From: Parcubacteria group bacterium
Lineage (GTDB): Bacteria > Patescibacteriota > Minisyncoccia > 2-02-FULL-40-12 > IGHO2-01-FULL-4-A
Assembly (NCBI GenBank): GCA_043821485.1
Contig: JBDRCU010000037.1
Location: forward strand, 28,746 to 92,745
DNA length: 64,000 bases
Direction: 5' to 3'
Shown here one piece after another: positions 46,388-63,638 of the stretch. Made by a program: the position numbers and the translations under genes. Position 1 is the stretch's first letter. Every line of letters starts with the position of its first letter. The notes beneath the pieces were generated by a model that saw only the letters and a program-made list of their open reading frames with translations, was not told the DNA's origin and made no database searches.

Positions 46388-46438
46388 CCGGCCATGAGAC
46401 CGGCAACAAGTACCGACATCAGGGCCGGACCTCCAACA

Positions 46439-46462
46439 GGGGGCACCGGCCCCCTTTTTTTT
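46439..46462 (+). terminator. Strong rho-independent terminator (GGGGGC-ACCG-GCCCCC then T8)
   Basis: Read directly. It sits immediately before the rRNA promoter region. Confidence 0.7.
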
Positions 46463-46694
46463 ATAAAACCCTTGACTTACCTAGGTCATTCTAATACACT
46501 GTATGGGTACTATGAATTAACACAAAACATACATCTTCATAGCATTTATGAAGGCTCGGGATTGTCCCTCAATGGGATGGTCCCGAGTCTTTAATGACAG
46601 AACATTAACAACTTTACAGCCAACGATACGTATATTCGTATCGTTAACTAGATCAATGAAAGATAGTTTGAGTAAATCTCAACTATTCTTATAA

Positions 46695-46734
<40 letters not shown>

Positions 46735-48113
46735 GATAAGGCATGCAAGTCGAACGGGCAATCTTCGGATTGTCAGTGGCGAACGAGTTAGTAACGCCTT
46801 GGTACCTACCCTATACTCAAGAATAACTCCGAGAAATCGGAGCTAATACTTGATAGTCTCGAAAGAGTAAAGATTTATCGGTATAGGAGGGGCCTAGGTC
46901 CTATCAGCTTGTTGGTGAGGTAACGGCTCACCAAGGCTATGACGGGTAGGGGATGTGAGAGCATGATCCCCAACGAGGGAACTGAGAACGGTCCTTACAC
47001 CTACGGGTGGCCGCAGTCGAGAATATTGGACAATGCGCGAAAGCGTGATCCAGCGACGCCGCGTGCAGGAAGAAGGCCTTCGGGTTGTAAACTGCTTTTA
47101 TGTGGGAAGAATTTTGACGGTACCACAAGAATAAGGGGCTGCTAACTTCGTGCCAGCAGCAGCGGTAATACGAAGGCCCCAAGCGTTATCCGGAATTATT
47201 GGGCGTAAAGGGCAGGTAGCCGGTTGGTATAGTCTGATGTTAAATCTCATGGCTCAACTATGAGACCGCATCAGAAACGTATCAGCTAGAGCAAGTCAGA
47301 GGCATACGGAACGTGCGGTGTAGGGGTGAAATCCGTTGATATCGCACGGAACACCAAAAGCGAAGGCAGTATGCTGGGGCTTTGCTGACGGTCAACTGCG
47401 AAAGCGTGGGGATAGAAAAGGATTAGATACCCTTGTATTCCACGCCCTAAACGATCCAGACTAGCTATCGGGAGCATCGACCCTCCCGGTGGCGAAGCTA
47501 ACGCGTTAAGTCTGGCGCCTGGGAAGTACGATCGCAAGATTAAAACTCAAAGGAATAGGCGGGGATTCGCACAAGCGGTGGATCGCGTGGTTTAATTCGA
47601 TACAAAGCGAAGAACCTCACCAAGGTTAGACATCATAGTGAAAGCCTTCTGAAAAGTTGGCCCCTTTTATAGCACTATGACAGGTGGTGCACGGCTGTCG
47701 TCAGCTCGTCGAGTGATCGGTTCTCTTAAGTGAGGAAACGAGCGCAACCCCTGTCGTCTGTTACAAGTGTCAGACGATACTGCCTGGGATAACCAGGAGG
47801 AAGGAGGGGATGACGTCAAGTCAGCGTGTCCTTTGATACCTTGGGCTACACACGCGATACAATGGGTGTTAACAATGGGTTGCCAAACCGCGAGGTGGAG
47901 CTAATCCCATCAAATGCGCCCTCAGTTCGGATAGGAGGCTGAAACTTGCCTCCTTGAAGTTGGAATCGCTAGTAATCGCAGATCAGAATGCTGCGGTGAA
48001 TACGTTCTCGAATCTTGCACTCACTGCCCGTCACATCAGGGAAGCCGGAAATACCCAAAGCACCATAAATTCTAATGGTACTACGGTAGGTTCGGTAACA
48101 AGGATGAAGTCGT

Positions 48114-49017
48114 AGAGATTAAGAAATAAAATTTGCGACCTGTCAAGAGTAATCTGGCAGAAAAACCCGACTAATATCGGTGAAACCTAAATCTTAAAAT
48201 GTTATAATTAAGATATGGTAATACCGAGGAAAGCTAGGAGAATCACATATTCAACTGAAATAAGAGAGCTAAAAAAGAGACTAAAACTAGATGAGTCACA
48301 AAAGGCTATAGTGATAGGCAGTATATTGGGCGATGCAACATTAGAGCTCAATTGGTCAAAAACCAACTGCCGAATGAGAATTGATCATTCTATAAAACAA
48401 GAGGATTACGTACGACTAAAGTATACAATCCTCAAGGACTGGGTACTTACTGAACCTAAATACTACAAGCCTCATAGGTCCATATGGTTCCGAACAATAA
48501 GTCATCCCAACCTTACTGAACTATGGAAAATATTCTACAAGAACAAGAAAAAAATTATACCAGAAAATATAGCTGAACTAATCCAAAACCCCCTTACTGT
48601 TGCAACATGGTTTATGGATGATGGTAATGTACGAAGACGAAATTCACGTATAATTTCCTACGACCTCAATACTCAATCGTTCACATACGCAGAAAATGAA
48701 AAACTTCTGAACGCCTTGAAAACGGTCTATGGAATATCTTGCAGTCTACATAAAAATCATAACAGACATAGAATATATATCGGTACCAATGAAAAAAATA
48801 AATTCCAAAAGATAATACGTAAATTATCAACACCATCTCTTAAATACAAACTTCAGTGAATATGTGATTCTCTTGGCCCCGTAGAGACTTCTCGTACTCT
48901 GGCCCCATAGCAGAACGAGGGATAGCTGTACGTAGACAGCTATAATACGTCGGCCCCAGTTATTAAAAACTGGGTGAAGATATAGTCCATGCTCGTGGAA
49001 ACACGGGAATAAACATG
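48114..49017 (+). other. Intervening sequence (probable group I intron) in the 16S rRNA at an E. coli ~1506-equivalent site
   Basis: Exon 1 ends ...GAAGTCGT and exon 2 starts AACAAGGCACGG, which restores the universal GAAGTCGTAACAAGG. A U precedes the 5' splice site and the intron ends in G. The boundaries are approximate, within a few nt. Confidence 0.6.
48215..48859 (+). CDS. Intron-encoded double-motif LAGLIDADG homing endonuclease
   Basis: Motif 1 is IVIGSILGDATLE. Motif 2 is TVATWFMDDGNV. The ORF lies wholly inside the 16S insertion. Confidence 0.85.
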   Translation: MVIPRKARRITYSTEIRELKKRLKLDESQKAIVIGSILGDATLELNWSKTNCRMRIDHSIKQEDYVRLKYTILKDWVLTEPKYYKPHRSIWFRTISHPNLTELWKIFYKNKKKIIPENIAELIQNPLTVATWFMDDGNVRRRNSRIISYDLNTQSFTYAENEKLLNALKTVYGISCSLHKNHNRHRIYIGTNEKNKFQKIIRKLSTPSLKYKLQ

Positions 49018-49261
49018 AACAAGGCACGGCTAGGAGAACCTGGTCGTGGATCACCTCCTTTCTATACAAAAACTCCTGCTTTATGCAGGTGCTGTATAGA
49101 AACATTAGGTGTCGATATAGGTTGTGCGAGGTTTGTTCGTCGATAGACAAGCACCTCGTACAAACTAAGGCTGGCTGATACAGCCCAATCTATCAGCGTT
49201 TGATGCTACCGAAAAGCACACTATCTAGTTAATGATACAAATAGACGTATAAACTCTAAAC

Positions 49262-49290
49262 AAAATAGCCTTAAGGGGCTATTTTGTTTG
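49262..49290 (+). terminator. Rho-independent terminator downstream of the 16S rRNA (AAATAGCC-TTAAGG-GGCTATTT then TGTTTG)
   Basis: Read directly. No 23S or tRNA follows. Confidence 0.6.
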
Positions 49291-49377
49291 ACTTATCTTT
49301 ACTTTGATATTAGACTGACCTTGTACGATAACAAATTTAATATAAATATCATGGGATTTGCAAAAGGAGAACCCTCT

Positions 49378-49650
49378 ATGGAAAAATCTATAGCCAAAGA
49401 AATGATAGAACAGATCGAAGATACATGGGCAGATGCAAAGCGTGGGATTGAAATTCTTGAAGCCAGAGGACACAGTCAGACAAAAGAACTGAAAAAAGAA
49501 TTAAGTAAATTGATGGTAGAAGATTTAGACGAGGCAGAAGATGCTAGAGACAAAGAAGTAAACGAAGATAGTCCACAAAGAGAAGGATATCAAGGCTTCA
49601 ACAAGCGCAATGCATTTGTTACAAAACTAAATAAACTTCTTAAAGAATAA
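49378..49650 (+). CDS. Hypothetical acidic protein (90 aa)
   Basis: An AAAGGAG Shine-Dalgarno site lies 9 nt upstream of the ATG. A hairpin terminator follows at about 49,664-49,692. Confidence 0.45.
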   Translation: MEKSIAKEMIEQIEDTWADAKRGIEILEARGHSQTKELKKELSKLMVEDLDEAEDARDKEVNEDSPQREGYQGFNKRNAFVTKLNKLLKE

Positions 49651-49709
49651 TTCTACCCATAATAAAACAGCGCAATATGGCGCTGTTTTATTATTACTAT
49701 TTTATCCAA

Positions 49710-50528
49710 CTACTTAATCTGATAAGTTAGAGTAACATTCACAGTTACTTCATTTTCTCCGGGTTCAATTGAAGGCATAGATCCTCCTCCGCCTCGTCCT
49801 GCTTCCATGTACACAGCAGAATCATACATAGGATAACCCATATATCCTTCATTGAAATTAACTATCTTGCCTAGATCAAGACCAACCTGATCTTCGAGTT
49901 CCCTAGCCTTCTTCTTGGCGTCCTCAATGGCAAGCTCTCTGGCTTCCGCTTGCAATTCGTCTGGGTCGTCAATATCGAATCTGAATGAATCCACTCGATT
50001 AGCTCCTTCGTCTACAACACCATCAAGAATTTCACTAACTATATCTAAATCACGAATCTTTACTTCAATGCTTTCAGTGACAGTATACCCAACAATACTT
50101 TGTGATACTGGCTGGGGTAGATAAGGATATATTTCTGCTGAGCCTCCTCCGCCCCGTCCAACTGCTTCATCGCTTCCATATTTAGGATAAATATTATAAC
50201 CTGTTGTTTTAATATCTTCCTTGTCTATATCTTTACTCTTTAAATAGTCAATAACATCTTGAGACTTCTCTGAATTCTCTTCTTGCGCATCTTCAGATGT
50301 ATCAGCTTCAGTTACAATACTTAAACGAACAATTGCAACATCAGGAACTGCATACACAGTACCTTGACCGCTGAAAGATACTACATTCTGCGTAGTGCCT
50401 GCGTCAGACAAATATCCTACTAGACTAAAGCCTAATATTATCAAAACCACAACAAATATAGCCGAAGCCCAAAGAAGAAATCCTTTTGCATTTTCAATTT
50501 TTGTATCCATATTTCTAAAAACAGTCAA
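49710..50528 (-). CDS. SIMPL-domain (DUF541) protein, membrane anchored
   Basis: An N-terminal TM is present. A duplicated ...GQGTVYAVPDVAIVRLSI... / ...YTVTESIEVKIRDLD... SIMPL-like pattern is present. Confidence 0.75.
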   Translation of the reverse strand: MTVFRNMDTKIENAKGFLLWASAIFVVVLIILGFSLVGYLSDAGTTQNVVSFSGQGTVYAVPDVAIVRLSIVTEADTSEDAQEENSEKSQDVIDYLKSKDIDKEDIKTTGYNIYPKYGSDEAVGRGGGGSAEIYPYLPQPVSQSIVGYTVTESIEVKIRDLDIVSEILDGVVDEGANRVDSFRFDIDDPDELQAEARELAIEDAKKKARELEDQVGLDLGKIVNFNEGYMGYPMYDSAVYMEAGRGGGGSMPSIEPGENEVTVNVTLTYQIK

Positions 50529-50607
50529 AGCTGTTTAATTAATAGTATTTATGATATATCTAACGCTACAGAAATGATTCTGTGACAGTGGTATAATAGC
50601 ATTTTGT

Positions 50608-51084
50608 ATGCCTAAAAAACAGACACTCAAAAAACAAATTTATTTAATACTTCACGACATACGCAGTGCCTGGAATGTAGGGTCTATGTTTCGTACTGCC
50701 GATGGCGCAGGAATAGATAAAATATATTTAACCGGCTACACAGCCACCCCTGAACATCCCAAAGTTCTCAAGACTTCTCTTGGCGCAGAAGGTTTTGTCC
50801 TATGGGAGCGATACAAACCCCTTGGAAAATTAATTAAGAAATTGCAAAAAGACGGCATACAAGTGCTTGCTCTTGAACAACATCCAAAAAGCAAAAACAT
50901 ATTCAAATACAAACCCAAATATCCCATTGCACTCGTAGTAGGAAATGAAATACGCGGAGTCGTCAAAACAACTCTTGCAAAAGTAGATGATATACTAGAA
51001 ATACCAATGCATGGCCAAAAAGAAAACCTAAACGTAGCAGTTGCTGCTGGTATAGCGCTGTACGCTATAAGGAAGAAAAAATGA
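50608..51084 (+). CDS. SpoU-family (SPOUT) tRNA/rRNA 2'-O-methyltransferase
   Basis: The SpoU motifs LILHDIRSAWNVGSMFRTADGAG and VVGNEIRGV are present. The product is 158 aa. Confidence 0.8.
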   Translation: MPKKQTLKKQIYLILHDIRSAWNVGSMFRTADGAGIDKIYLTGYTATPEHPKVLKTSLGAEGFVLWERYKPLGKLIKKLQKDGIQVLALEQHPKSKNIFKYKPKYPIALVVGNEIRGVVKTTLAKVDDILEIPMHGQKENLNVAVAAGIALYAIRKKK

Positions 51085-52835
51085 TCAAACTCTCAAAATT
51101 AAAACACTGGACACTGACCCTAATACCTTTATTGATACTGGGGATATTAATGTATCTCCACGTAGATCTACTTCTCAAAACATTTGTAATAGACGGGACG
51201 GGCCATATCCGTACTGCAATATCCGGATATGGTGATATCCCTCTGCACCTAACACAGGTGAGTAAATTTGCCTTCGGTGATTTTAATCTTAGTGAACCAA
51301 TTTTCTATGGCAATAACCTACAATATCCATTTATCATAAACCTCATTAGCGGACTATTGCTCAAACTTACATCATTATGGAGATTATCATTTCTATTGCC
51401 TGTAATAGTGCTCGCCGTATTAAATATATTTCTTGCATATTCCATATATCGCAAACTTATCTCAAACAAGATTTTAGCAACCCTGGCTGTTGTCGTGTTT
51501 TTGGTAGGTTCTGGATTTGGGGGATGGAGTATTATCCAAGACGCAATAGGCGAGGGCCATACATTGAACTCATTTATAGGAATGCTAAGTGAAGAGAATA
51601 TATCTACAGCTACTAGATGGGACGCGCAATATCCTGAACAAAATATTGGCTATGGAGCACCCATGAGCCTTTTTTTCTTACATCAACGTCCTTTCATCAT
51701 GGGGCTAACCTGTTTTCTAACTTTAATAACACTTCTTCTTGCCCTAAAGGACAAACCCAGTACTAAATATGCAATCCTTGCGGGAATCATCTATGGCATC
51801 TTGCCACTCGTTCACGCTCATACATTCATGATATTCACAGTAGCAATGCTAGTAGTTTTAATTCTCTCTCTGTATAGATCTGATAAACTCTATCTTAAAA
51901 AATTACTAATCATTTTGGGTATAGCAATCTTAATTGCAACACCACAGGTACTTTATCTAATGGGGGACAAAGCAGGTGTCTCCACGGAATCTGAATTCTT
52001 AAATTTCCGTATTGGCTGGATGGTAGAACCAACCATTGGATCAGCACAATTCCCTGATGAGAATCGTACCGTCTTTAGTCTAAGTTACCTCAAGTTTATT
52101 ATGATAAATTTGGGAATACTCTTCCCTGCATTTATTCTCGCTCTAATACTGATCCTCCTTCCCAAAAAACTAAACAAAAAAATATTTAATAAAACATCTC
52201 GCACACTATTGCTGGCAGCGGCATTGTCAGCTATTTTCATTTTTCTTGCAGCCCAGCTAATCCGCTTCCAACCATGGGACTATGATAATAATAAGATTTT
52301 TGTATATTGGCAGTTTTTTGCAGTGCCTTTGGTCTTCCTATTGCTCTACCAGCTGTACAAACATACAAAATTAATCGGAGGAACTATCATTGCAGTCTTT
52401 CTCGTATTCTCCCTTTTCTCAGGAATTATTGATCTGACTCCAAGATATACATCCAAGACAGAGAACCTACCGGTAATCTATGACATCCATGCACAAAACC
52501 TTGCCCAATATGTACGCACTAATACCTCAAAACACGACTTAGTGTTAACAGGCGCCTCTCACCTCAACCCAGTGATAGCCCTTGCTGGCAAAGAAACACT
52601 TGTTGGATTTCCTGGCTGGCTATGGACGCGTGGGATTGACTATGGAGATCGCTTGCAAAAAATAGAAGACTTCTACAAAAACCCCTCGCAAGACCAGATA
52701 CTTAAAGAGTTTCCCATTTCATACATACTACTCGATTTACAGACAAATACTGACTACAAAGCAGACTTAAATACTTTTGATAATCTCTACACAAAAGTCT
52801 TTGAATCGGGACAATACACCTTATACAAAATCTAA
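51081..52835 (+). CDS. Large polytopic membrane protein (GT-C-like glycosyltransferase candidate)
   Basis: The 584-aa product has more than 12 predicted TM helices. No catalytic motif was recognised. Confidence 0.5.
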   Translation: MIKLSKLKHWTLTLIPLLILGILMYLHVDLLLKTFVIDGTGHIRTAISGYGDIPLHLTQVSKFAFGDFNLSEPIFYGNNLQYPFIINLISGLLLKLTSLWRLSFLLPVIVLAVLNIFLAYSIYRKLISNKILATLAVVVFLVGSGFGGWSIIQDAIGEGHTLNSFIGMLSEENISTATRWDAQYPEQNIGYGAPMSLFFLHQRPFIMGLTCFLTLITLLLALKDKPSTKYAILAGIIYGILPLVHAHTFMIFTVAMLVVLILSLYRSDKLYLKKLLIILGIAILIATPQVLYLMGDKAGVSTESEFLNFRIGWMVEPTIGSAQFPDENRTVFSLSYLKFIMINLGILFPAFILALILILLPKKLNKKIFNKTSRTLLLAAALSAIFIFLAAQLIRFQPWDYDNNKIFVYWQFFAVPLVFLLLYQLYKHTKLIGGTIIAVFLVFSLFSGIIDLTPRYTSKTENLPVIYDIHAQNLAQYVRTNTSKHDLVLTGASHLNPVIALAGKETLVGFPGWLWTRGIDYGDRLQKIEDFYKNPSQDQILKEFPISYILLDLQTNTDYKADLNTFDNLYTKVFESGQYTLYKI

Positions 52836-53465
52836 ATGACCCTACCGTCTCACAAGTTAGAACAACGACTTTTTAGAAATGGTTACAAATCTATCTGCGC
52901 AGTAGATGAAGTTGGAGTTGGATGTCTTGCGGGTCCAGTGGTAGCATGCACAGTCCGCATTAAAAAACCCTTTCTAAAACAGAAAAATATCCTTAAAAAT
53001 GTCCGCGATTCAAAACTTTTAACACCTCGGCAAAGAGAAAAACTCTACGCCCAACTTATTAATAATAGATATATAACACACTCAATTTCTTATTCGCTTC
53101 CCCGAACAATAGATAAATACAATATCTATAATGCCTCGCGAAATACAATGAAACGATCTGCGCAAAACATTATTTCGCTTAATAGCGTCTTACTTGTGGA
53201 TGGCCCCAGAGAATTAAAGAATATGCATCTTCCACAGCAAGCCATAATAAAAGGAGATAGAAAGGTTATTGTAATTGCATGCGCATCAGTAATTGCGAAG
53301 GTTCATCGCGACAGAATGATGAAACGATATGCCAAGCGCTATCCCGGATACGGACTTGAACAGCACAAAGGATATGGAACTAAATATCATATTGCGCAAC
53401 TCGCATCTCTTGGTCCATCCAAAATACATCGCAAATCATTTGCTCCTGTGGCAAGACTCTTGTAA
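52836..53465 (+). CDS. rnhB: Ribonuclease HII
   Basis: The N-terminal catalytic motif CAVDEVGVGCLAGPVVA is present. The product is 209 aa. Confidence 0.9.
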   Translation: MTLPSHKLEQRLFRNGYKSICAVDEVGVGCLAGPVVACTVRIKKPFLKQKNILKNVRDSKLLTPRQREKLYAQLINNRYITHSISYSLPRTIDKYNIYNASRNTMKRSAQNIISLNSVLLVDGPRELKNMHLPQQAIIKGDRKVIVIACASVIAKVHRDRMMKRYAKRYPGYGLEQHKGYGTKYHIAQLASLGPSKIHRKSFAPVARLL

Positions 53466-53474
53466 AATTAAGGT

Positions 53475-54485
53475 ATGGCACAACCTAAAATAGCTATTAA
53501 CGGTTTCGGACGAATCGGTCGTATGTTTTTTCGACATGCCTGGGACAATCCTGATTTAGATATTGTTGCGATAAATGATCTAGGCGATCTTGATAATCTT
53601 GCATATCTTTTGAAATATGATTCAGTTTACAAAACGTTTGAAAAAGAAATTAAAACAAAAAATGGCAATCTCATCGTTGACGGACAGGAAATAGAAGTTC
53701 TTCAGGAAAGAGAACCTTCTAAGCTTCCTTGGTCCGAACTTGGCGTTGATATTGTTGTTGAAGCAACTGGTGCATTTACAACATTGGAGAAAGCAAAAGC
53801 TCATCTACATGCAGGGGCTAAGCGTGTAGTAATAACTGCTCCAGCGAAGGACGATATAACTCCAACTGCAACGCCCAATGTAGGAGAGGATCGTTTATCA
53901 GATGAGAATGTAACATCCAATGCATCTTGCACTACAAATGCAGTAGCACCAATTATGGCCATAATGTCTAATAATCCTGGTGTTAAGAAAGCTCTCCTTA
54001 ATACAATACATGGCTATACAGCAACACAGGGACTTATTGATGGACCTTCAAAGAAAGATTTTCGACGAGGTCGCGCAGCAGCTCAAAACATCATACCTTC
54101 AAGCACTGGAGCAGCAATAGCCACTACCAAAGCACTACCTAACTTAAAGGGCAAATTTGACGGCATTGCAATGAGAGTACCCGTAATAACAGGTTCGATT
54201 ATAGACGTAACTTTTATAGCAGAGAAATCAGTTTCAGTCGAAGATATTAATAATATATTCCGTGAAAAAGCAAAATCTGATGAATGGAAAGGAATCCTTG
54301 CGGTCACAGAAGAACCTATTGTCTCTTCTGATATTATCGGCAATAGCCATGGATCAATTATAGACTTATCTATGACCCGAGTTGTTGATGGAGACTTAGT
54401 CAAAGTCTGTGCTTGGTATGACAATGAATGGGGATATGCTTCAATGCTTGTTAAACATGTCAAAACAGTAGCTAAAATGCTTTAA
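53475..54485 (+). CDS. gap: Glyceraldehyde-3-phosphate dehydrogenase
   Basis: The N-terminus is KIAINGFGRIGR. The active site SNASCTTNA is present. Confidence 0.93.
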   Translation: MAQPKIAINGFGRIGRMFFRHAWDNPDLDIVAINDLGDLDNLAYLLKYDSVYKTFEKEIKTKNGNLIVDGQEIEVLQEREPSKLPWSELGVDIVVEATGAFTTLEKAKAHLHAGAKRVVITAPAKDDITPTATPNVGEDRLSDENVTSNASCTTNAVAPIMAIMSNNPGVKKALLNTIHGYTATQGLIDGPSKKDFRRGRAAAQNIIPSSTGAAIATTKALPNLKGKFDGIAMRVPVITGSIIDVTFIAEKSVSVEDINNIFREKAKSDEWKGILAVTEEPIVSSDIIGNSHGSIIDLSMTRVVDGDLVKVCAWYDNEWGYASMLVKHVKTVAKML

Positions 54486-54497
54486 TTTTTAAACGAC

Positions 54498-55385
54498 ATG
54501 CCTCACGTACATGATGAAAAAATTAAAGAGCTAGAAATTATGGCGAATAAAATTCGTCAGTCTATTATTGAGATGCTGACTACTGCAGGAAGCGGTCATA
54601 CAGCTGGCCCGCTTGGCATGGCTGATGTTTTCACAGCCTTGTATTTCCATACACTGAATCATGATCCAAAGAATCCCGAATGGGAAAACAGGGATAGACT
54701 TCTTCTGTCTGCCGGCCATATCGTACCAGTTCAATATTCAGCAATGGCGCATGCTGGATATTTTCCGATGAGAGAGCTCAATACTCTGCGCAAGCTTGGC
54801 TCGCGTCTTCAAGGCCATCCGGAACGCTTAAGGCTTCCTGGGATCGAAACAACTCCGGGTCCACTGGGAGAAGGCTTATCTCAGGCATGCGGAATGGCTT
54901 ACGGAGCAAGAATGGATAAAAAATGGTTTAGAATTTATTGCATAATGTCAGACGGGGAACAACAAGAAGGCAATACGTGGGAAGCAATCATGTTTGCAGG
55001 CAAAAATCGTTTATCCAATATCACTGCAATAATGGATCGTAACAATATACAAATAGACGGAATAGTTGAAGACATCATGCCTCTTGAACCGCTTCGCGAA
55101 AGATATGAATCATTCGGATGGCATGTACTCGAAATTAACGGACATGATTTTGAAGATATCATAAGTGCTTGTGAACAAGCTCATGCAATAACGACTAAAC
55201 CTGTTCTTATCATTGCCCATACAATTCCTGGCAAAGGCATTCCTGAAATTGAATTTGATTATCGCTGGCATGGAGTACCTCCGGGCAAAGGGCCTGGGGA
55301 TAAAGTTCCTCAAGATGAGCAAAAGAAGCATTTCTTGCATGATTTAAGGACTTTAAAAGGAAAAATAGAAAGCGAGCATCAATAA
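54498..55385 (+). CDS. Transketolase, N-terminal (TPP-binding) subunit of a split transketolase
   Basis: The motifs GHTAGPLGMADV and DGEQQEGNTWEA are present. The product is 295 aa. Confidence 0.88.
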   Translation: MPHVHDEKIKELEIMANKIRQSIIEMLTTAGSGHTAGPLGMADVFTALYFHTLNHDPKNPEWENRDRLLLSAGHIVPVQYSAMAHAGYFPMRELNTLRKLGSRLQGHPERLRLPGIETTPGPLGEGLSQACGMAYGARMDKKWFRIYCIMSDGEQQEGNTWEAIMFAGKNRLSNITAIMDRNNIQIDGIVEDIMPLEPLRERYESFGWHVLEINGHDFEDIISACEQAHAITTKPVLIIAHTIPGKGIPEIEFDYRWHGVPPGKGPGDKVPQDEQKKHFLHDLRTLKGKIESEHQ

Positions 55386-55430
55386 AAATGGATTTTGTGA
55401 TAAAATATAGATTAGAAGGGAGGTGACGTT

Positions 55431-55634
55431 ATGAAAGAAAGCGGAAATTTATCAAAACTATTATGGGGTCTTATGTGGATTGCTGCAATCCTGTTTTGGA
55501 TATCAGTAGTATTCCTAGACAACAGCATATTCGGCATAAGCAGTGAACACCTATGGAAAGAAATAGTCGTATTTGGAATATTACTATTTGCAGTATGTTG
55601 TTCGCGTTGCCGAGGAGGTTCGTGCGAAAAATAG
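55431..55634 (+). CDS. Small membrane protein (67 aa) between the transketolase halves
   Basis: An AGGGAGGTGA Shine-Dalgarno site is present. Two TM helices are predicted. A C-terminal CCSRCRGGSCEK motif is present. Confidence 0.4.
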   Translation: MKESGNLSKLLWGLMWIAAILFWISVVFLDNSIFGISSEHLWKEIVVFGILLFAVCCSRCRGGSCEK

Positions 55635-55659
55635 TAAAAGGTCTGCACACTAAACTATT

Positions 55660-56658
55660 ATGATTAATTCCAATGCAAAATTGGCAATTGGTGTTTTTGG
55701 CAAGGAAACGCCTGAATTTATTCCCATACGAGATGGGTATGGCAAAGGCGTAGTTGAAGCCGGCCAAAAAGATGAACGCATAGTTGTACTATGCGCTGAT
55801 TTAACTGAATCTACCCGCTCTCATTGGTTTAAAGAACAATTCCCTGAGCGATTCATAGAAATGGGCGTTGCAGAACAAAATCTTGCAACAGTAGGTGCCG
55901 GACTTGCTGGTTACGGTAAAATTCCATTTATTGCATCCTATGCAACTTTTTCACCAGGAAGAAATTGGGAACAAATTCGAACAACTGCATGTCTTAATGA
56001 CTTACCTGTAAAAGTCGTTGGCGCACATGCAGGCGTTTCAGTTGGCCCGGACGGAGCAACGCATCAGGCGCTTGAAGACATAGCACTAATGCGCGTACTT
56101 CCCGGAATGACAGTAGTTATACCATGTGATGCAATTGAAACACACAAGGCAACACTAGCCCTTGCACATGACGATAAACATCCGGGATATTTAAGATTGG
56201 CCCGAGAGAAATCTCCAGTTATTACCACACAAGACACGCCATTTGAAATAGGGAAGGCAGAAATATTTAGAGAAGGAGATGACGTCACACTTATTGCTTG
56301 CGGACCTCTTGTGTATAATGCACTTGTTGCAGCAGAAGAATTATCCAAAGAAAACATCAATGCAACGGTGATTAATAATCACACGATCAAGCCCTTAGAT
56401 GAACAAACAATAATAGATTCCGCTAAAAAGACAGGAGCAGTAGTCACAATCGAAGAACATCAAATCGCAGGAGGTCTTGGTTCTGCAATTGCAGAATTGC
56501 TCAGCCAGCATCAGCCAACACCGCAAGAATTTATCGGTATGAAAGATACTTTTGGCGAATCAGGGACGCCAGAAGAACTCTACAAACACTTTGGTCTTGA
56601 TTCAGAATCTATAAAAGAAGCTGTTAAAAAAGTTTTATCCAGAAAACAAAACCTTTGA
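55660..56658 (+). CDS. Transketolase, C-terminal (pyrimidine-binding) subunit
   Basis: The motifs GVAEQNL and ...GPDGATHQ... are present. The product is 332 aa. Confidence 0.88.
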   Translation: MINSNAKLAIGVFGKETPEFIPIRDGYGKGVVEAGQKDERIVVLCADLTESTRSHWFKEQFPERFIEMGVAEQNLATVGAGLAGYGKIPFIASYATFSPGRNWEQIRTTACLNDLPVKVVGAHAGVSVGPDGATHQALEDIALMRVLPGMTVVIPCDAIETHKATLALAHDDKHPGYLRLAREKSPVITTQDTPFEIGKAEIFREGDDVTLIACGPLVYNALVAAEELSKENINATVINNHTIKPLDEQTIIDSAKKTGAVVTIEEHQIAGGLGSAIAELLSQHQPTPQEFIGMKDTFGESGTPEELYKHFGLDSESIKEAVKKVLSRKQNL

Positions 56659-56699
56659 TTTTTAATGACTTTTCTGCTATTTTACTGGAACAGAAATGA

Positions 56700-56772
56700 G
56701 GGCGTGTAGCTCAGCGGTAGTAGCGCGTCACTGATAATGACGAGGCCGCAGGTTCGATCCCTGCCACGCCCA
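56700..56772 (+). tRNA. tRNA-Ile (anticodon GAT)
   Basis: The acceptor is GGGCGTG/CACGCCC. The anticodon stem CGTCA/TGACG carries a CTGATAA loop. The T-arm is GCAGGTTCGATCCCTGC. Confidence 0.85.
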
Positions 56773-56841
56773 CCGCGAAAACAACAATCTTTATTGATTG
56801 TTGTTTTTGTTTATTTAACGTCATGCTATACTAAAATAACT

Positions 56842-57639
56842 ATGCTTAAAAAAACCACAAGACCAAAACCAAGTACAAAAGAAATGCGTGAAGGAAAATT
56901 TAATCTACCTGCTTCCAAACTTCAGCTCATAGAAGAAGACGCTCCAACAAGAGATTTTCGCTCTTCATTTCACTGGAGAGTATTTCGTATAATGGCTGAA
57001 TTTGTTGATGGCTGGCAATTCCTTGCAGATTTTAAACGATCCGTAACATTCTTTGGTTCAGCACGATTTAAACCCGAAAGTCCATGGTACCAGCAAGCTC
57101 GTGAACTCGCTAGCAAGTTAGCTGACGATGGTTTTGATGTCATTACAGGCGGAGGCCCGGGTATCATGGAAGCTGCAAACCAAGGAGCGCATGAGTCTCA
57201 CACTAATTCTCTTGGATTAATTGAAGACGACAGAAGAGGAGATTCAAGGGGCGATTCAATAGGATTAAACATCAGATTGCCATTCGAACAACGTATTAAT
57301 AAATATGTTGAGAAAGCAGTTGCCTTCCATTATTTCTTTGTACGAAAAGTAATGCTTACATATTATGCACAAGCCTACATCTATTTCCCCGGAGGATTTG
57401 GAACTCTGGACGAAGCATTTGAAGTTATAACCTTGGTACAAACAAAAAAGATACCTCGCATACCTATCGTATTTGTTGGCAAAGGCTACTGGGGGAAACT
57501 GGATGACTTTATGAAAAATACAGTATATGGCGAATACAAAGCAATAGACAAGGGAGATATGGACATTTATACCATTGTTGACACAGTTGAAGATGCCTAC
57601 AAGATTATAAAAAAATCCCCGCCAAGAAAGGTTTTCTGA
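56842..57639 (+). CDS. LOG-family protein (cytokinin riboside 5'-monophosphate phosphoribohydrolase-like; TIGR00730)
   Basis: The motifs VTFFGSAR and GGGPGIMEAANQGA are present. The start is taken at the ATG at 56842 to avoid overlap with tRNA-Ile. Confidence 0.8.
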   Translation: MLKKTTRPKPSTKEMREGKFNLPASKLQLIEEDAPTRDFRSSFHWRVFRIMAEFVDGWQFLADFKRSVTFFGSARFKPESPWYQQARELASKLADDGFDVITGGGPGIMEAANQGAHESHTNSLGLIEDDRRGDSRGDSIGLNIRLPFEQRINKYVEKAVAFHYFFVRKVMLTYYAQAYIYFPGGFGTLDEAFEVITLVQTKKIPRIPIVFVGKGYWGKLDDFMKNTVYGEYKAIDKGDMDIYTIVDTVEDAYKIIKKSPPRKVF

Positions 57640-57705
57640 TATCAAAAGCTTCCCCAAAAACTCAAAATGTGTTATAACATAAGACGCCCATAAAACATCT
57701 TATTA

Positions 57706-57778
57706 GGGCCCGTAGCTCAGTTGGTAGAGCGCCTCACTTGCACTGAGGAGGCCGGGGGTTCGAATCCTCTCGGGTCCA
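57706..57778 (+). tRNA. tRNA-Ala (anticodon TGC), with the G3:U70 identity pair
   Basis: The acceptor is GGGCCCG/CGGGTCC. The anticodon stem CCTCA/TGAGG carries a CTTGCAC loop. A TTCGAAT T-loop is present. Confidence 0.85.
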
Positions 57779-57780
57779 CG

Positions 57781-58104
57781 ATGAATGATAAGAAAAATAG
57801 AATTTGCGAAATTAATGTGCCAGTCAATGATAAATACTGGGATGGCTGGAGCGTACTCCACGTTTTTGTAGGAGTTCTATTGGCTTGGGTAATGAATCCA
57901 TTTATTGCGCTCTTTGTTATGATTTTGTACGAACCATTCGAAGTGCGTGTTATTTGTCCATGGATTTACAAACGCCATGGTATCGTTTTTGGAAACGAGT
58001 CTGCCAAAAATATCCTCATGGATATTATGTTTGATGCAATAGGTATCTTAATTGGCTTCTATATACTGCGAGGCGTTGTAAATTCCCCTTTCATCCTATT
58101 CTAA
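57781..58104 (+). CDS. Small membrane protein (107 aa)
   Basis: The ORF starts immediately after tRNA-Ala. Three TM helices are predicted. Confidence 0.4.
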   Translation: MNDKKNRICEINVPVNDKYWDGWSVLHVFVGVLLAWVMNPFIALFVMILYEPFEVRVICPWIYKRHGIVFGNESAKNILMDIMFDAIGILIGFYILRGVVNSPFILF

Positions 58105-58262
58105 TTATTCGAAGTAAGTGACCTCTAGATATCTTTAATCAAAGTTTTCCATACATCCCGAAACGGTCCACCATATTGAATTAGTCGCCTCGCTCTTGTT
58201 GACAATAGTATATGCATCATGCTAGTATTGTAATACAAATTATTACAGTAAGTAGAAGGAAT

Positions 58263-58469
58263 ATGCGAAATATCATCAATATATCTCTCCCCCCAAGTCT
58301 CGCACAAACCGTACACAAGGAAGTACGCCAGGGGAAATATGCCAGTACAAGCGAATTTTTTCGCTATCTTTTGCGCAGGCATCAACTGGCACAAGAACTT
58401 AAACAAGAACGAAAAATATTTGAAAAAGGCAAAGGGAAGACTCTCAAATCACTTCGAGTCCTGCGCTAA
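58263..58469 (+). CDS. Ribbon-helix-helix (CopG/ParD-like) antitoxin
   Basis: The N-terminal RHH pattern is MRNIINISLPPSLAQTVHKEVRQGKYASTSEFFRYLLRR. Confidence 0.7.
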   Translation: MRNIINISLPPSLAQTVHKEVRQGKYASTSEFFRYLLRRHQLAQELKQERKIFEKGKGKTLKSLRVLR

Positions 58470-58479
58470 ATTACAGAAT

Positions 58480-58734
58480 ATGAAAATTCTCTATTTGCCC
58501 AGATTTGCCCGAGAATACAAAAAGCTCCCTGAAAATATAAAAAAGCTTGCTGAAAAAAGAGAGACAAATTTCCGTAAAAATCCTTTTAACTCAATTCTAA
58601 AAACGCATAAACTGCATGGTGAACTATCAGAATTCTGGTCTTTTTCTATTAACTGGGAATATAGAATTATTTTTGATTTTGCAGACGAGAATACCGTGAG
58701 ATTCTATAGAATCGGAACTCATGACCTTTATTAA
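58480..58734 (+). CDS. RelE/ParE-superfamily toxin (mRNA interferase-like)
   Basis: The 84-aa product carries ...HKLHGELSEFWSFSINWEYRIIFDF...RIGTHDLY. It begins 11 nt after the antitoxin stop. Confidence 0.7.
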   Translation: MKILYLPRFAREYKKLPENIKKLAEKRETNFRKNPFNSILKTHKLHGELSEFWSFSINWEYRIIFDFADENTVRFYRIGTHDLY

Positions 58735-58803
58735 AATTAATTTACCAAACCAAGCCTACCTGAATATGCTATAATATCTATAAAGATACTTCGTATCGTT
58801 TTT

Positions 58804-59172
58804 ATGGTATTAGTTAAATATTTAATTTGGCACTATAGTATTGCACCGCGTAATATAGTGGCCATTATGCTTAATTATGTTGTGGGAACATGGCATAACT
58901 TTTTAATTGTTAGGCATCTGCGTACACTGTTTGCTCCTTGGCATAGAACAAAGCCCGAAGAAATTCTCAAACCCAAAACACTAGGAGATAAAATGGGCAA
59001 TTTTGTCGTAGATATTTTCATAAGACTCATAGCTGCAGTACTTCGCCTTGGGATCGTACTCACTGGTTTGATATATGAGATATTAATCATCGCTGTATTT
59101 ATTGTATTCCTGGTTGTGTGGTTAGCATGGCCTGCAATATTGGTCTTATCAATTAGACAATTTTTTGTATAA
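58804..59172 (+). CDS. Small membrane protein
   Basis: The 122-aa ORF has hydrophobic segments. Confidence 0.4.
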   Translation: MVLVKYLIWHYSIAPRNIVAIMLNYVVGTWHNFLIVRHLRTLFAPWHRTKPEEILKPKTLGDKMGNFVVDIFIRLIAAVLRLGIVLTGLIYEILIIAVFIVFLVVWLAWPAILVLSIRQFFV

Positions 59173-59178
59173 CGCAAC

Positions 59179-61677
59179 ATGAATACCAAAATATTCCAAT
59201 CAATAAAAACTTTCAAATACATTCCTCTGCGAGTAATCGTATTTTGGCGCATTGTGCTCCTTATCTTGGGCAGTGCAGGTTCAATCGGATATCTTGCTCG
59301 ATATTTTAATTATATAACTTTAGATTCCAACCTTATTGATCTCTCTACCTTCATCCTTCTTCCAATCGGAATCACAATTTTGTTCTTTGAAATCTTTTTA
59401 AAATTCCATATCATAGATCCCCCTATAAAAGACGATGCTTCTATTGAAGAACGCTTTGATTTCAATACACGAAAGATCCTTTATCACGCTTACAATATTC
59501 ATCCAAAAGGTGGCATAACAATACCAGATCTTACATTAGCACTCTTAAAAGATCCTTCTGCTCGAATCCTTTGGGCGCGCATGGGTATAAATCCTGCTGA
59601 TGTTGGGGAGTTCTTTGCTCAAAATATTAATCAGCACGAGACAAGTACTGAACAACAAAAAGACTATACCGATCTCATTGTAGCCCTAGATGTGATACGC
59701 GAGGATAGTAAATCCAAACGAATATACATGGCAGACCTCTTTGTGGTCCTTTTTGATCTTGATCCGCTATTACAACAATTCTTGCTTCAAGCCGATATCA
59801 GCAGGGAAGACCTGAGTTCCATAGCTACTTGGTATGATGCAAAAAAGCAATATATTCAACGCTCCAGACGCTTCTGGATGCGCGAGAGACAGCTTGAGAA
59901 GCGCCCAGTAGGTCTTGGCTGGGCATATGGCTATACACCCGCATTGAGCCGTTTTGCACATGATATTAGCGCCCAATTCGAGGGTACGGATAAGAAGCTC
60001 TGGCTTGTAGGACGCGAAGATGAATTAGTCCAAATAGAGCGTATCCTGTCAAGATCAAGAGAAAATAATGTCCTACTGGTTGGCCCTCCCGGAGTAGGAA
60101 AACAGACAACAGTTCATGGCCTGGCTCAACGCATAATACATAATCACAGTCTTCCTGGCCTTGCATATAAACGAGTATTTGAACTTGACGTAGCATCAAT
60201 CATGTCATCATCTTCTTCGCCTCAAGAAATCGAAGCTCTACTACTCACAGTTCTTCATGATGCTACCAAAGCGGGAAACATCATACTTTTCATAAATGAT
60301 TTTCAAAATGTAATCGGCCTTACTGACAGCATGGGCAGTACTGACATGTCAGAAATTTTAAAACCCTATCTTGAATCCAGTGCAATCCAAATCCTTGCAA
60401 CAATTGACGACGAACATTATCACACCATAGTTGAACGCAGACCGGACATACTTAAGGTTTTTGAAAAAATCGATATTGCAGAGCCTAACGAGACAGATAC
60501 AATACGTATTCTTCAAACTATGCTTCCGTACATGGAAGCTCATGAAAAAATATTAATTACGCATCAGGCATTAAGAGCTGTGGTTCTCAAATCGGGCGCA
60601 TTCATACAGGACAGGCCATTCCCTGAAAAAGCAATTGACCTGCTTACAGAAGTTGTAGCTGATGTTAAAACAGGAGACAGACAGCTTGTGCAGAAAGATG
60701 ATGTCGATAAAGTAATCAGTCAGAAGACGCACATTCCGCTTGGATCTCTCACAGAAGGCGAAAAAGAAAAACTTCAGCATCTCAAAGAACTTCTGCACGA
60801 AGATGTGGTCAATCAGGAACAAGCCGTGATAGAAGTCTCAAGAACAATTACCCGCTTGCGCGCAGGTATAACTAGCATAAAGAAGCCTGCCGGTAGTTTC
60901 CTATTTACCGGACCCACCGGAGTAGGCAAGACCTTAACTGCACGAACTCTTGCTAAAGTGTACTTCGGAAGCGAAGAGAATATGATACGTTTTGATATGT
61001 CAGAATATCAAAATTCGGATGCAATGGATCGCTTCCTTGGATCTCCTAAAACAGGAGAGGCGAGCCGATTCCTTAATGCAACCAGAGACAATCCTTATGC
61101 GGTATTACTTTTTGATGAATTCGAAAAAGCTCATCCGTCTATACATAATTTATTCTTACAAATTCTGGATGAAGGCTCTATGACAGATGCTTATGGCAAA
61201 AAAGTATCTCTCAAACAGCATATAATTATTGCTACATCGAATGCGGGGGCTGAACATATTCGTGAAATGATAAAACAGGATATTGATCCCGCATCAGAAC
61301 AAGCACAACTGATTGATTACCTATTACAAAACAGCCTATTCAGACCTGAACTTTTAAACAGGTTTGATGACGTTATAATATTTCATCCTTTAACTGATAA
61401 GCATCTCCACGAAGTTGCTTCGCGTCTTCTTGAAAAACTAGCCAAACGACTCAAAGAACAAAATTACTATCTAACTATTACTGCGGATTTAATTTCTTAC
61501 GTTGCACGCAAAGGATACAATCCACAGTTTGGCGCACGCCCTATGCAACGCTTAATACAAGATACCGCAGAGGTCTGGGTAGCAGAGGCAATACTCAATA
61601 AAAGAATCAAAAAAGGAGAGCAGTTTGAAATTGATATGAATGCTATGGAAAAGGGGCAACTGCATGATACACTGTAG
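59179..61677 (+). CDS. Clp-family AAA+ ATPase (ClpC/ClpB-like, two nucleotide-binding domains) with a hydrophobic N-terminus
   Basis: NBD1 Walker A is VLLVGPPGVGKQT. NBD2 Walker A is FLFTGPTGVGKT. NBD2 Walker B is LLFDEFEKAH. A sensor-2 GARPMQR motif is present. Residues 20-70 or so are hydrophobic. Confidence 0.88.
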   Translation: MNTKIFQSIKTFKYIPLRVIVFWRIVLLILGSAGSIGYLARYFNYITLDSNLIDLSTFILLPIGITILFFEIFLKFHIIDPPIKDDASIEERFDFNTRKILYHAYNIHPKGGITIPDLTLALLKDPSARILWARMGINPADVGEFFAQNINQHETSTEQQKDYTDLIVALDVIREDSKSKRIYMADLFVVLFDLDPLLQQFLLQADISREDLSSIATWYDAKKQYIQRSRRFWMRERQLEKRPVGLGWAYGYTPALSRFAHDISAQFEGTDKKLWLVGREDELVQIERILSRSRENNVLLVGPPGVGKQTTVHGLAQRIIHNHSLPGLAYKRVFELDVASIMSSSSSPQEIEALLLTVLHDATKAGNIILFINDFQNVIGLTDSMGSTDMSEILKPYLESSAIQILATIDDEHYHTIVERRPDILKVFEKIDIAEPNETDTIRILQTMLPYMEAHEKILITHQALRAVVLKSGAFIQDRPFPEKAIDLLTEVVADVKTGDRQLVQKDDVDKVISQKTHIPLGSLTEGEKEKLQHLKELLHEDVVNQEQAVIEVSRTITRLRAGITSIKKPAGSFLFTGPTGVGKTLTARTLAKVYFGSEENMIRFDMSEYQNSDAMDRFLGSPKTGEASRFLNATRDNPYAVLLFDEFEKAHPSIHNLFLQILDEGSMTDAYGKKVSLKQHIIIATSNAGAEHIREMIKQDIDPASEQAQLIDYLLQNSLFRPELLNRFDDVIIFHPLTDKHLHEVASRLLEKLAKRLKEQNYYLTITADLISYVARKGYNPQFGARPMQRLIQDTAEVWVAEAILNKRIKKGEQFEIDMNAMEKGQLHDTL

Positions 61678-61682
61678 CAACG

Positions 61683-63638
61683 TTGTTTTATCGCATGGAT
61701 AGAAAAGAAGCTATATTAAAAGATTTAAATAAAGAACAAATTAAAGCAGTCCAGACAATTACTGGACCTGTTTTAATTTTGGCTGGAGCTGGGTCAGGTA
61801 AGACCCGCGCTTTAACGCATAGAATTGCATACATGATAGAAGACGGAATAAGCCCTCATAATATTCTTGCTGTAACATTTACAAACAGAGCTGCGAAAGA
61901 GATGAAAGAACGTATTAACAAACTCTTGTCAGGCAAAGATAAGTCAGTCATGCCAGTAATAGGGACGTTTCATTCTGTATGTTTGCGCATACTGCGAGCC
62001 CAAGCACAACATCTTGGATATGATCCCGGTTTTGTAATATATGATACAGATGATCAAGTCAGTGTTGTAAAAAATATTCTGGAAAATCTTGGCATTGACC
62101 AAAAACGCTTTAAACCTCAAACAATGCTGAATAAAATTTCAACATTAAAAAATGAACTCATAACATCAGCAAAATTTGAACCAGAAGCAAATTCCTATAC
62201 ACAAAAGCTCCTTCAAACAATTTACGAAGCATACCAAGACACGCTTAAAAAAATGAATGCCATGGATTTTGATGATTTAATAATGAATTGCGTTCAATTA
62301 TTCCAAACCAATCCTGAAATTCTGGAAAAGTATCAGGACATGTTCAACTATATATTAATTGACGAATATCAGGACACCAATCATGCTCAATATGTTTGGG
62401 TTAAGCTCCTTGCACGCAAACACAGAAACGTTGCAGTCGTAGGCGACGATAATCAGAGTATTTACGGATGGAGGCAAGCCGACATACGGAATATTTTAGA
62501 TTTTGAAAAAGATTATCCGGAAGCCGTAGTCATTTCACTTGAACAGAATTACAGATCAACACAAACTATACTAGATGCAGCCAACAATGTTATTAGCAAC
62601 AACAAGATGCAGAAGCTAAAAAATCTTTGGACAGATAATTCCAAGGGCGAAGCTGTGATTATCAAAGAAGCCATGGACCATCATCAGGAAGCTAAATATA
62701 TAGTGGAAATGATACAAGGAAAACCCGAGATTCTGAAACATGGCGCAATCCTTTATCGCACTCATGCACAATCACGAAATCTTGAAGAAGCATTAGTCAG
62801 GCATGGAATTCCATATTCAATCTTTGGAGGCATTAAATTCTATGAAAGACGCGAAGTAAAAGACGTACTTGCTTATCTGCGCCTTACTCTTAATCCTCGC
62901 GATCAAGTTAGTTTTGGAAGAATCTATAACGTACCTACGCGCGGGCTTGGAGCTACAACTTACAAAAAACTCCTATCCATGGATCTGCCCCTTGATGAAT
63001 TACTTAGTTCAAACTTATTAGATAAGGAATTTAATAAAAAGCAGATTGAAAAACTTCATGCTTTAGATGAATTATTACAAAAGATAGGCAGTCAGGCTAA
63101 AACTATGCCTGCTTCAAAATTAGTCTTAAGTTTATTAAAACTGCTTGATTACAAGAGATATATAGATGACGGAACTCCGGAAGGAGAAGTTAGATGGGAT
63201 AATGTTAAAGAAATTATAACAGCAGCGCAAAAATATGATGAGATAGAACCGCCTCGCGGACTTGAGGCATTCCTTGAAGAAGTAGCTTTGCTTCAAGATA
63301 CGGATACAAAACGCGGACACGAGACAGGAATTCGCATGATGACCCTGCACTCTGCAAAAGGCCTTGAATTTGATACTGTATTTATGGTTGGTATGGAGGA
63401 AGGGATATTTCCTCATGCACGAAGCCTGTATGACGTGGACGAGCTTGAAGAAGAACGCCGTCTCTGTTATGTAGGGATTACACGGGCAGAGAGGGAACTC
63501 CATATGATCTATTGCAGACATAGAAATCTATACGGTTCTTATCAAATGAACCCTCCCTCAAGATTCATATTGGAAGTACCTGAAGAACTGATAGAATTTA
63601 AGCATATTGATGATGAGGACTATGTCGTTAAATATTAA
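61683..63638 (+). CDS. UvrD/PcrA/Rep-family DNA helicase
   Basis: Walker A LILAGAGSGKTRAL is present. The helicase motifs YILIDEYQDTN and VGDDNQSIYGWR are present. Confidence 0.92.
   Translation: MFYRMDRKEAILKDLNKEQIKAVQTITGPVLILAGAGSGKTRALTHRIAYMIEDGISPHNILAVTFTNRAAKEMKERINKLLSGKDKSVMPVIGTFHSVCLRILRAQAQHLGYDPGFVIYDTDDQVSVVKNILENLGIDQKRFKPQTMLNKISTLKNELITSAKFEPEANSYTQKLLQTIYEAYQDTLKKMNAMDFDDLIMNCVQLFQTNPEILEKYQDMFNYILIDEYQDTNHAQYVWVKLLARKHRNVAVVGDDNQSIYGWRQADIRNILDFEKDYPEAVVISLEQNYRSTQTILDAANNVISNNKMQKLKNLWTDNSKGEAVIIKEAMDHHQEAKYIVEMIQGKPEILKHGAILYRTHAQSRNLEEALVRHGIPYSIFGGIKFYERREVKDVLAYLRLTLNPRDQVSFGRIYNVPTRGLGATTYKKLLSMDLPLDELLSSNLLDKEFNKKQIEKLHALDELLQKIGSQAKTMPASKLVLSLLKLLDYKRYIDDGTPEGEVRWDNVKEIITAAQKYDEIEPPRGLEAFLEEVALLQDTDTKRGHETGIRMMTLHSAKGLEFDTVFMVGMEEGIFPHARSLYDVDELEEERRLCYVGITRAERELHMIYCRHRNLYGSYQMNPPSRFILEVPEELIEFKHIDDEDYVVKY

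Follow-up and report, generated by a model that had tools for sequence, protein, structure and literature searches.

The 64,000-nucleotide stretch of DNA analysed here (hereafter the window), from contig JBDRCU010000037.1 of a Parcubacteria group bacterium, contains a single 16S ribosomal RNA (rRNA) gene that is interrupted near its 3′ end by an insert of 904 nucleotides (nt). The insert is very probably a mobile group I intron belonging to the "16S position 1498" family of the candidate phyla radiation (CPR), carrying the gene for an I-SceI-type monomeric LAGLIDADG homing endonuclease. The finding is an ordinary member of an already published class of insertions at position 1498 of CPR 16S rRNA. 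The principal features are as follows.

46696–48113, forward strand: 16S exon 1, Escherichia coli positions ~8–1498 (Rfam RF00177, alignment to E. coli).
48114–49017, forward strand: probable group I intron of 904 nt, lying after U1498, with a U before it and omega-G 49017 at its end.
48215–48859, forward strand: open reading frame (ORF) of 214 amino acids (aa) with an ATG start, encoding a predicted LAGLIDADG_2/I-SceI-like endonuclease (Pfam, alignment to I-SceI, AlphaFold2 model).
49018–49062, forward strand: 16S exon 2, E. coli positions 1499 to ~1542, with helix 45 (h45) and an intact anti-Shine-Dalgarno sequence, GGAUCACCUCCUUU (alignment to E. coli).

The 16S gene starts with AGAGTTTGATCCTGGCTCAG at 46696 and matches the Rfam family RF00177 (SSU_rRNA_bacteria) with 1357.6 bits. 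This match was forced to stop at 48143 without reaching the true 3′ end of the gene—a hint that this end has been displaced. In a MAFFT alignment, the gene was found to be colinear with E. coli 16S rRNA except for one unbroken 904-column gap in the E. coli sequence, flanked by ...GGGGTGAAGTCGT(A) and (A)ACAAGG, and there were no other large insertions. Downstream of the insert, the conserved 16S sequence picks up through GGATCACCTCCTT, followed by h45 and then GGATCACCTCCTTT. The junction is ambiguous by one base (A); 48114–49017 is the placement that satisfies the group I rule, in which a U stands before the 5′ splice site and the intron ends in G. The coordinates given for the insert, the 16S start, and the ORF in a preliminary description of the window all hold when checked against the alignment and the ORF list, but the insertion site, placed there at E. 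coli position ~1506, actually lies eight bases upstream, between U1498 and A1499 in a count that starts at the 3′ terminus of E. coli 16S. For this numbering, the 3′ end alone of the E. coli reference NZ_CP091836 (L001) was used, the region spanning variable regions 3 and 4 (V3–V4) looking chimeric. The 16S copy in this record, NZ_CP091836.1 (annotated at locus 294–1813), is 1520 nt long and unlike E. coli in V3–V4; it is the top blastn match because of this chimeric-looking region, a fault of the reference record and not of the window.

The elements assigned to the putative ribozyme, all on the forward strand, are listed below with the support for each, from covariation among 34 aligned introns or from minimum free energy (MFE) folds.

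48109–48116 with 48132–48139: P1, with U48113•G48135 at the splice site (paired in 34 of 34 introns; MFE).
48109–48113: exon strand of P1, GUCGU, the last 5 nt of exon 1.
48132–48139: internal guide sequence, in which GCGAC (48135–48139) pairs with exon GUCGU.
48132–48134 (UUU) with intron 48114–48116 (AGA): extension of P1 across the splice site (MFE).
48140–48160: P2 hairpin, CUGUCA.../...UGGCAG, with a GNRA-type loop, GUAA (covariation, MFE).
48167–48171: 5′ strand of P3, CCGAC, with its partner at 48949–48953 (covariation).
48949–48953: 3′ strand of P3, GUCGG, forming the P3/P7 pseudoknot with P7 (covariation).
48177–48227: P4–P5–P5a domain (covariation, MFE, and a partial Rfam match at 48177–48270 to the P4–P6 part of the model).
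48177–48182 with 48222–48227: P4, followed by J4/5, AA.
48185–48187 with 48217–48219: P5 (covariation, MFE).
48191–48197 with 48208–48214: P5a and loop L5 (covariation, MFE).
48233–48259: 5′ strand of P6, a long helix closing off the ORF, with its partner at 48852–48877 (covariation).
48852–48877: 3′ strand of P6, containing the stop codon TGA at 48857–48859.
48884–48889: 5′ strand of P7, G(A)GACU, with bulged A48885 and its partner AGUCC at 48984–48988 (MFE).
48890–48920: P7.1 hairpin, between P7 and the 3′ strand of P3 (MFE).
48922–48943: P7.2 hairpin (MFE; 4 of 6 pairs covary).
48955–48974: P8 hairpin, CCCAGUU/AACUGGG (covariation, MFE).
48975–48983: J8/7, UGAAGAUAU, which together with the P7 3′ strand AGUCC makes up the core motif GAAGAUAUAGUCC (48975–48988).
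48989–48991 (AUG) with 49014–49016 (CAU): P9.0, enclosing P9 (covariation).
48992–49007: P9, with a GAAA tetraloop (covariation, MFE).
49017: omega-G, the terminal G.

In this arrangement, the pair G48886–C48987 sits at the position of the guanosine-binding pair. The core motif GAAGAUAUAGUCC, near-invariant in the 34 sequences, was aligned with high posterior probability to the Rfam Intron_gpI consensus AAGAUAUAGUC. Furthermore, MFE folds of the two intron halves recovered P1, P2, P4, P5, P5a, P7, P7.1, P7.2, P8, and P9, with z-scores of −4.3 and −3.6.

Extra hairpins P7.1 and P7.2 between P7 and the 3′ strand of P3 are the textbook mark of subgroup IA (Michel and Westhof). They are present in the window intron but absent in three homologs (L032, L034, and L069), and subgroup IA is a tentative assignment. 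P7.1/P7.2 are also mentioned as an IA character in PMC3984707.

Homologous introns were collected by a profile scan with the protein alignment, taking one genome per species, which returned 80 loci. A homologous insert of 835–974 nt was found at 43 of these, and in all 44 cases including the window the junction is identical—that is, AAGUCGU, the intron ending in omega-G, and AACAAGG. With the U•G pair of P1 and the covarying core described below, this bears out the preliminary assignment to a group I intron from the U before the 5′ junction and the terminal G. The hosts comprise Parcubacteria (Yanofsky-, Kaiser-, Taylor-, Zambryski-, Nomura-, and Wolfebacteria, and Paceibacterota) and Microgenomates (Davies-, Levy-, and Gottesmanbacteria). 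In the Parcubacteria-type introns the ATG lies in the P5 3′ strand (P5′) and the protein is 43–60% identical to that of the window; in the Microgenomates-type introns the ATG lies inside P6, and the identity is 31–38%.

For the covariation analysis, 34 introns were reduced to their 5′ and 3′ ribozyme portions, linked by N6 in place of the ORF interior, and aligned. The structure that was counted was drawn by hand and comprised P1, P2, P3, P4, P5, P5a, P6, P7 (in a pseudoknot with P3), P7.2, P8, P9.0, and P9, with the outer pairs of P9, the base of P6, and P2 beyond 6 base pairs (bp) left out because their MAFFT registers differ between sequences. Standard pairs were found in 88.6% of the alignment cells, compared with 34–40% when the 3′ partners were slid by 1–3 columns, a contrast inflated by the structure having been drawn on the same alignment on which it was scored. 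Double-sided changes, which are not exposed to this bias to the same degree, were found at 54 of 74 pairs (344 cells), and none of 500 shuffles reached any of the five measures. The signal extends over most helices: all six pairs of P2 covary (91.7% paired), as do four of five in P3 (98.8% paired; variants CCAAC/GUUGG, CUGGC/GCCGG, and GUACC/GGUAC), six pairs in P4/P5 (92.2% paired), all six in P5a, 13 of 15 distal and both basal pairs in P6, five of seven in P8 (93.4% paired), all three in P9.0 (100% paired), and all four in P9 (86.0% paired). In P1, which forms in every sequence, the U•G pair is invariant, and one compensatory change between exon and guide was observed (L032, GUCAU/GUGAC). 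P7, G(A)GACU/AGUCC, is likewise invariant in all 34 and hence gives no covariation signal; its sequence fits a guanosine-binding P7. Thus, strong covariation supports a complete group I architecture as predicted from the aligned sequences, despite an Rfam score below threshold.

The 214-aa product matches the Pfam family PF03161 (LAGLIDADG_2) over positions 2–168 of the 168-position model (E=6.4e-43; 147.1 bits against a cutoff of 25), aligns with I-SceI over residues 16–213 (E=1.4e-20), and also matches I-WcaI (6x1j; E 4e-15). Two LAGLIDADG motifs are present, ...GSILGDA with D40 and ...WFMDDGN with D136; D40 is aligned to D44 of I-SceI and D136 to D145, and neither D40 nor D135/D136 varies across an alignment of 32 relatives. 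The AlphaFold2 (AF2) model built from this alignment has a mean predicted local distance difference test score (pLDDT) of 90.6 and a predicted template modelling score (pTM) of 0.86, and shows two alpha-beta-beta-alpha-beta-beta-alpha halves. A Foldseek search of the PDB with the model gave I-WcaI (template modelling score, TM, 0.86) and I-SceI (TM 0.83) as top matches over all 214 residues. By homology and model, then, the protein is an intact two-motif pseudo-dimeric homing endonuclease of I-SceI type, with its activity and target predicted from its relatives, which upholds the double-motif protein of the preliminary description. The CPR origin proposed in that description also stands: an identical protein, encoded on a 126-kb contig, is deposited at NCBI as "MAG: LAGLIDADG endonuclease [Parcubacteria group bacterium]" (MAG, metagenome-assembled genome), and among the 188 relatives of ~214 aa that were found, those that are named are all Patescibacteria, as are all the close relatives from the locus scan.

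When ATG starts are considered, the ORF is truncated or frameshifted in nine related loci (L011, L020, L027, L029, L034, L037, L045, L049, and L069), with the longest ATG ORF spanning 81–158 aa or with none longer than 150 aa. These decayed ORFs are signs of the gain–decay cycle of homing endonucleases. Relatives of the endonuclease were also observed in MAGs labelled "uncultured Gammaproteobacteria bacterium" (binchicken; L036, L038, L043, L047, L054, and L058), three of which (L036, L043, and L047) have a Microgenomates-type 1498 intron; the Gammaproteobacteria labels are probably wrong.

From these features, the following course of events may be proposed. In the precursor rRNA, exogenous guanosine would attack after U48113, and the freed 3′-OH of exon 1 would then attack after G49017. 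The ligation of GAAGUCGU to AACAAGG (U1498–A1499) would restore the sequence of the decoding centre and helices 44 and 45 (h44/h45), so that the single 16S copy would give a normal ribosome after splicing. Splicing must be expected to occur, because otherwise 904 extra bases would stand between the top of h44 and h45. The endonuclease, in turn, would cut alleles that lack the intron, at the site ...GAAGTCGT/AACAAGG..., which is universally conserved (predicted substrate, GAAGTCGTAACAAGG), and repair of the cut would copy the intron in. Such homing would explain the identical insertion site across Parcubacteria and Microgenomates. The least certain step is expression of the endonuclease, which could proceed from an extended −10 promoter in L5 through a leaderless or near-leaderless mRNA, as discussed below.

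Several points weigh against this interpretation. P7 is constant throughout, as are most of P1 and P4, so that these parts lend it no covariation support, and the pairing contrast given above is inflated. P10, which was considered as a further element and dropped, could comprise at most 2 bp (AA/UU). The check proposed in the preliminary description, a search with the Rfam group I covariance model, fell short: RF00028 (Intron_gpI) aligned to 48758–49008 with 24.9 bits (E=5.5e-4) against a gathering score of 50. The aligned portion is the GAAGAUAUAGUCC core (J8/7–P7) followed by the GAAA-capped P9, with high posterior probability, and a second, partial match of 15 bits lies at 48177–48270. At the Rfam gathering threshold, no intron match was obtained in the window, and no RF00028 match for the 1498 introns of 20 related loci, the same scan returning small-subunit rRNA (SSU), transfer RNA (tRNA), and, farther upstream in five loci, group II domain matches. 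The whole family thus appears to escape RF00028, likely because of the ~600-nt ORF in P6 and the P7.1/P7.2 inserts. Finally, splicing and exon ligation in the source organism are predictions from group I chemistry, and the activity and target of the endonuclease are predictions from homology.

Among other explanations, removal of the insert by an RNase III-type excision without religation would leave a fragmented 16S rRNA, with a 1.4-kb body and a 3′ piece of ~45 nt. Intervening sequences of this type exist in bacterial 23S rRNA and, according to one survey, are suspected for some CPR insertions (PMC11270868), and the failure of the window and the 20 loci to reach the curated group I threshold would agree with such an origin. 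However, the ends of the insert do not pair as a processing stem; they are instead engaged in P1 and P9.0, which are conserved and covarying. Excision by RNase III would not need a conserved, covarying group I core, and intervening sequences of this type are typically short and without homing endonucleases, making this explanation highly unlikely. The arrangement could also be an assembly artefact, an intron-like fragment having been misjoined into the 16S gene of a MAG, in which rRNA regions are prone to misassembly. The base-precise junctions, the colinear 16S restored by the exons, a guide complementary to the very exon it adjoins, and the recurrence of the arrangement in 43 independent assemblies render an artefact exceedingly improbable.

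It is also unlikely, to much the same extent as excision by RNase III or slightly less so, that the intron is in decay, with splicing dependent on a maturase (the LAGLIDADG protein itself) or a host factor, or with a nuclease that is no longer active. In favour of decay, the ORF overlaps P5′, P4′, and P6, so that translation and folding could interfere; the LAGLIDADG maturases I-AniI and bI3 are among the structural matches, as distant ones; and the frameshifted and truncated ORFs of several homologs show the gain–decay cycle at work in the family. In the window, by contrast, the ORF is undamaged, the two catalytic Asp residues are retained, and none of the core helices is disrupted.

Insertions of this kind in CPR rRNA genes are well documented. 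Self-splicing group I introns were reportedly described in 16S genes of giant sulfur bacteria by Salman and coworkers in 2012, and the td, nrdB, and sunY introns of phage T4, which belong to subgroup IA, have P7.1/P7.2 and express their endonucleases from intron-internal promoters. Both groups, like the window intron, are bacterial or phage group I introns with homing endonuclease ORFs, and both differ from it in hosts and insertion sites; the T4 endonucleases are, moreover, GIY-YIG or HNH enzymes, unlike the LAGLIDADG enzyme of the window. The likeness of the latter to I-SceI and I-WcaI comprises homology over the full length, the same fold, two LAGLIDADG motifs, the conserved catalytic Asp, and a gene within an rRNA group I intron, theirs being in the yeast mitochondrial large-subunit (LSU) rRNA. 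The differences are the 27–30% identity, the bacterial 16S instead of the mitochondrial 21S host gene, and the expected target, here predicted to be ...GAAGTCGT/AACAAGG....

In a survey of 380 CPR 16S genes, insertions were reported in 48% of the genes, and the frequent sites were named 16IS1–10, with group I introns at 16IS4–7 and 16IS10 (Tsurumaki et al., 2024, J Bacteriol; PMC11270868). According to the same text, 16IS10, taken here as the 1498 site, is unreported in non-CPR bacteria, those at position 1498 resemble group I introns and code for LAGLIDADG_2 proteins of ~210 aa, and CPR genomes usually have one rRNA copy. As summarised there, such insertions were found by Brown et al. to be absent from transcripts, and I-ShaI, another LAGLIDADG enzyme from CPR bacteria, cleaves the site of its own insertion. 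The window intron shares with the 1498 class of that text the host clade, the site after U1498, the LAGLIDADG_2 family, the ~210-aa size, and a group I-like RNA, and differs from it in no essential respect; the split into Parcubacteria and Microgenomates types matches the "two distant clades" mentioned there (PMC11270868). The LAGLIDADG_2 proteins are called "single-domain" in that text, in the Pfam sense, whereas the protein described here is a two-motif pseudo-dimeric monomer like I-SceI. The text of PMC11270868 gives no secondary structure for site 1498, and its supplement has no text on 1498. Overall, the window adds one more case to what is already amply recorded, namely that introns bearing endonucleases have spread into the most conserved sites of CPR rRNA.

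The sole part that may add to this knowledge is the start of the ORF, with its promoter-like motif and its dual coding, both of which are modest leads. The ORF occupies the loop of P6 and starts ahead of it, its ATG at 48215 falling in the 3′ strand of P5. Codons 1–15 span P5′, P4′, and the 5′ side of P6 (48215–48262), and the last three codons and the stop codon lie in the 3′ strand of P6 (48849–48859). The protein stretches encoded there, N-terminal MVIPREAGRITYSTEIR and C-terminal YKLG, rank with the best conserved in the family; their use in both coding and ribozyme would explain this high conservation, and the constraint on them is probably at the RNA level.

The motif itself lies in the same region:

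48200–48208, forward strand: extended −10-like motif TGTTATAAT, in L5/P5a, 6 nt upstream of the ATG, a candidate internal promoter.

Together with an upstream hexamer it forms a sigma-70-like site, GTGAAA-17-TATAAT, with the TG present and 10 of 12 matches, the best site in 46400–49400. An in-frame ATG in P5′ was found in 29 introns, of which 28 are Parcubacteria-type. The pattern TG-N-T-A-[T/A]-A-[A/C]-T is conserved in 28 of these 29, in the L5 loops of the window and of L002–L035 and L049. The upstream T is present in 26 and the G in 27 of the 29; within the hexamer, T1 and A2 are each present in 28 and A4 and T6 in all 29, position 3 being T or A and position 5 A or C. The distance to the ATG is 6–7 nt in 25 of the 29, and the motif is retained in L025 despite an insertion of ~60 nt in L5. 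The motif was not found in Microgenomates-type introns, in which the ORF starts inside P6, with one weak exception (L037).

Judged from the sequences, the conserved and variable positions are exactly those of an extended −10 element. It is therefore conceivable, although somewhat doubtful, that the Parcubacteria-type 1498 introns possess their own internal extended −10 promoter and produce a leaderless endonuclease mRNA. Shared ancestry or the partial overlap with P5a could also be the reason for conservation of the motif. If the promoter is real, expression of the endonuclease would be uncoupled from transcription of the precursor rRNA and from folding of the ribozyme; the first ~15 codons would double as strands of P5′, P4′, and P6, a compact way of expressing a protein from within an rRNA gene; and the promoter would occur in a lineage in which many members have lost the anti-Shine-Dalgarno sequence.

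Indeed, CCUCC after h45 is absent in 27 of the 44 related 16S genes (for example, GTGGAATATTTCAA), and the window 16S retains GGATCACCTCCTTT. The loci without CCUCC fall within L003–L035 and L049, the position having been checked 30–45 nt past the 3′ end of the intron, and CACCTCCTT was not found in their downstream sequences (about 0.8–2.4 kb each). A pattern search for exon 2 with the anti-Shine-Dalgarno sequence missed most loci because these relatives lack CCUCC, and not because of a different junction. Loss of the anti-Shine-Dalgarno sequence in a subgroup of Parcubacteria has already been reported (PMC9297842).

With respect to annotation, standard tools shorten the 16S gene, with the SSU match ending at 48143, and the intron is invisible at the curated threshold of RF00028. 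The intron also splits the site of primer 1492R (AAGTCGT|AACAAGG...), so that such organisms drop out of full-length amplicon surveys and the 16S genes of their MAGs are misannotated. Single mismatches were found in the 515F site at 47149–47167 (GTGCCAGCAGCAGCGGTAA) and the 806R site at 47421–47440 (ATTAGATACCCTTGTATTCC), which together with the split 1492R site would bias common amplicon primers against the window 16S. The blind spot in amplicon surveys that had been suggested for this gene is thus reasonable.

Matches to the Rfam family group-II-D1D4-1 were observed in the same 16S genes, upstream of the 1498 intron, at five related loci (L013, L019, L033, L036, and L055), and none was found in the window 16S in the Rfam scan. 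These matches are consistent with the reported LAGLIDADG-bearing group II-like insertions at ~1400 in CPR 16S rRNA.

The rRNA operon of the window is broken up: no LSU rRNA match was found anywhere in the window, and the 23S gene is not downstream of the 16S gene. The region 3′ of the 16S gene (49064–64000) contains genes for a SIMPL protein, a SpoU methylase, RNase HII, GAPDH, and a split transketolase, and, further downstream, tRNA-Ile(GAU) at 56700, a LOG-family ORF, tRNA-Ala(UGC) at 57706, and then ClpB.

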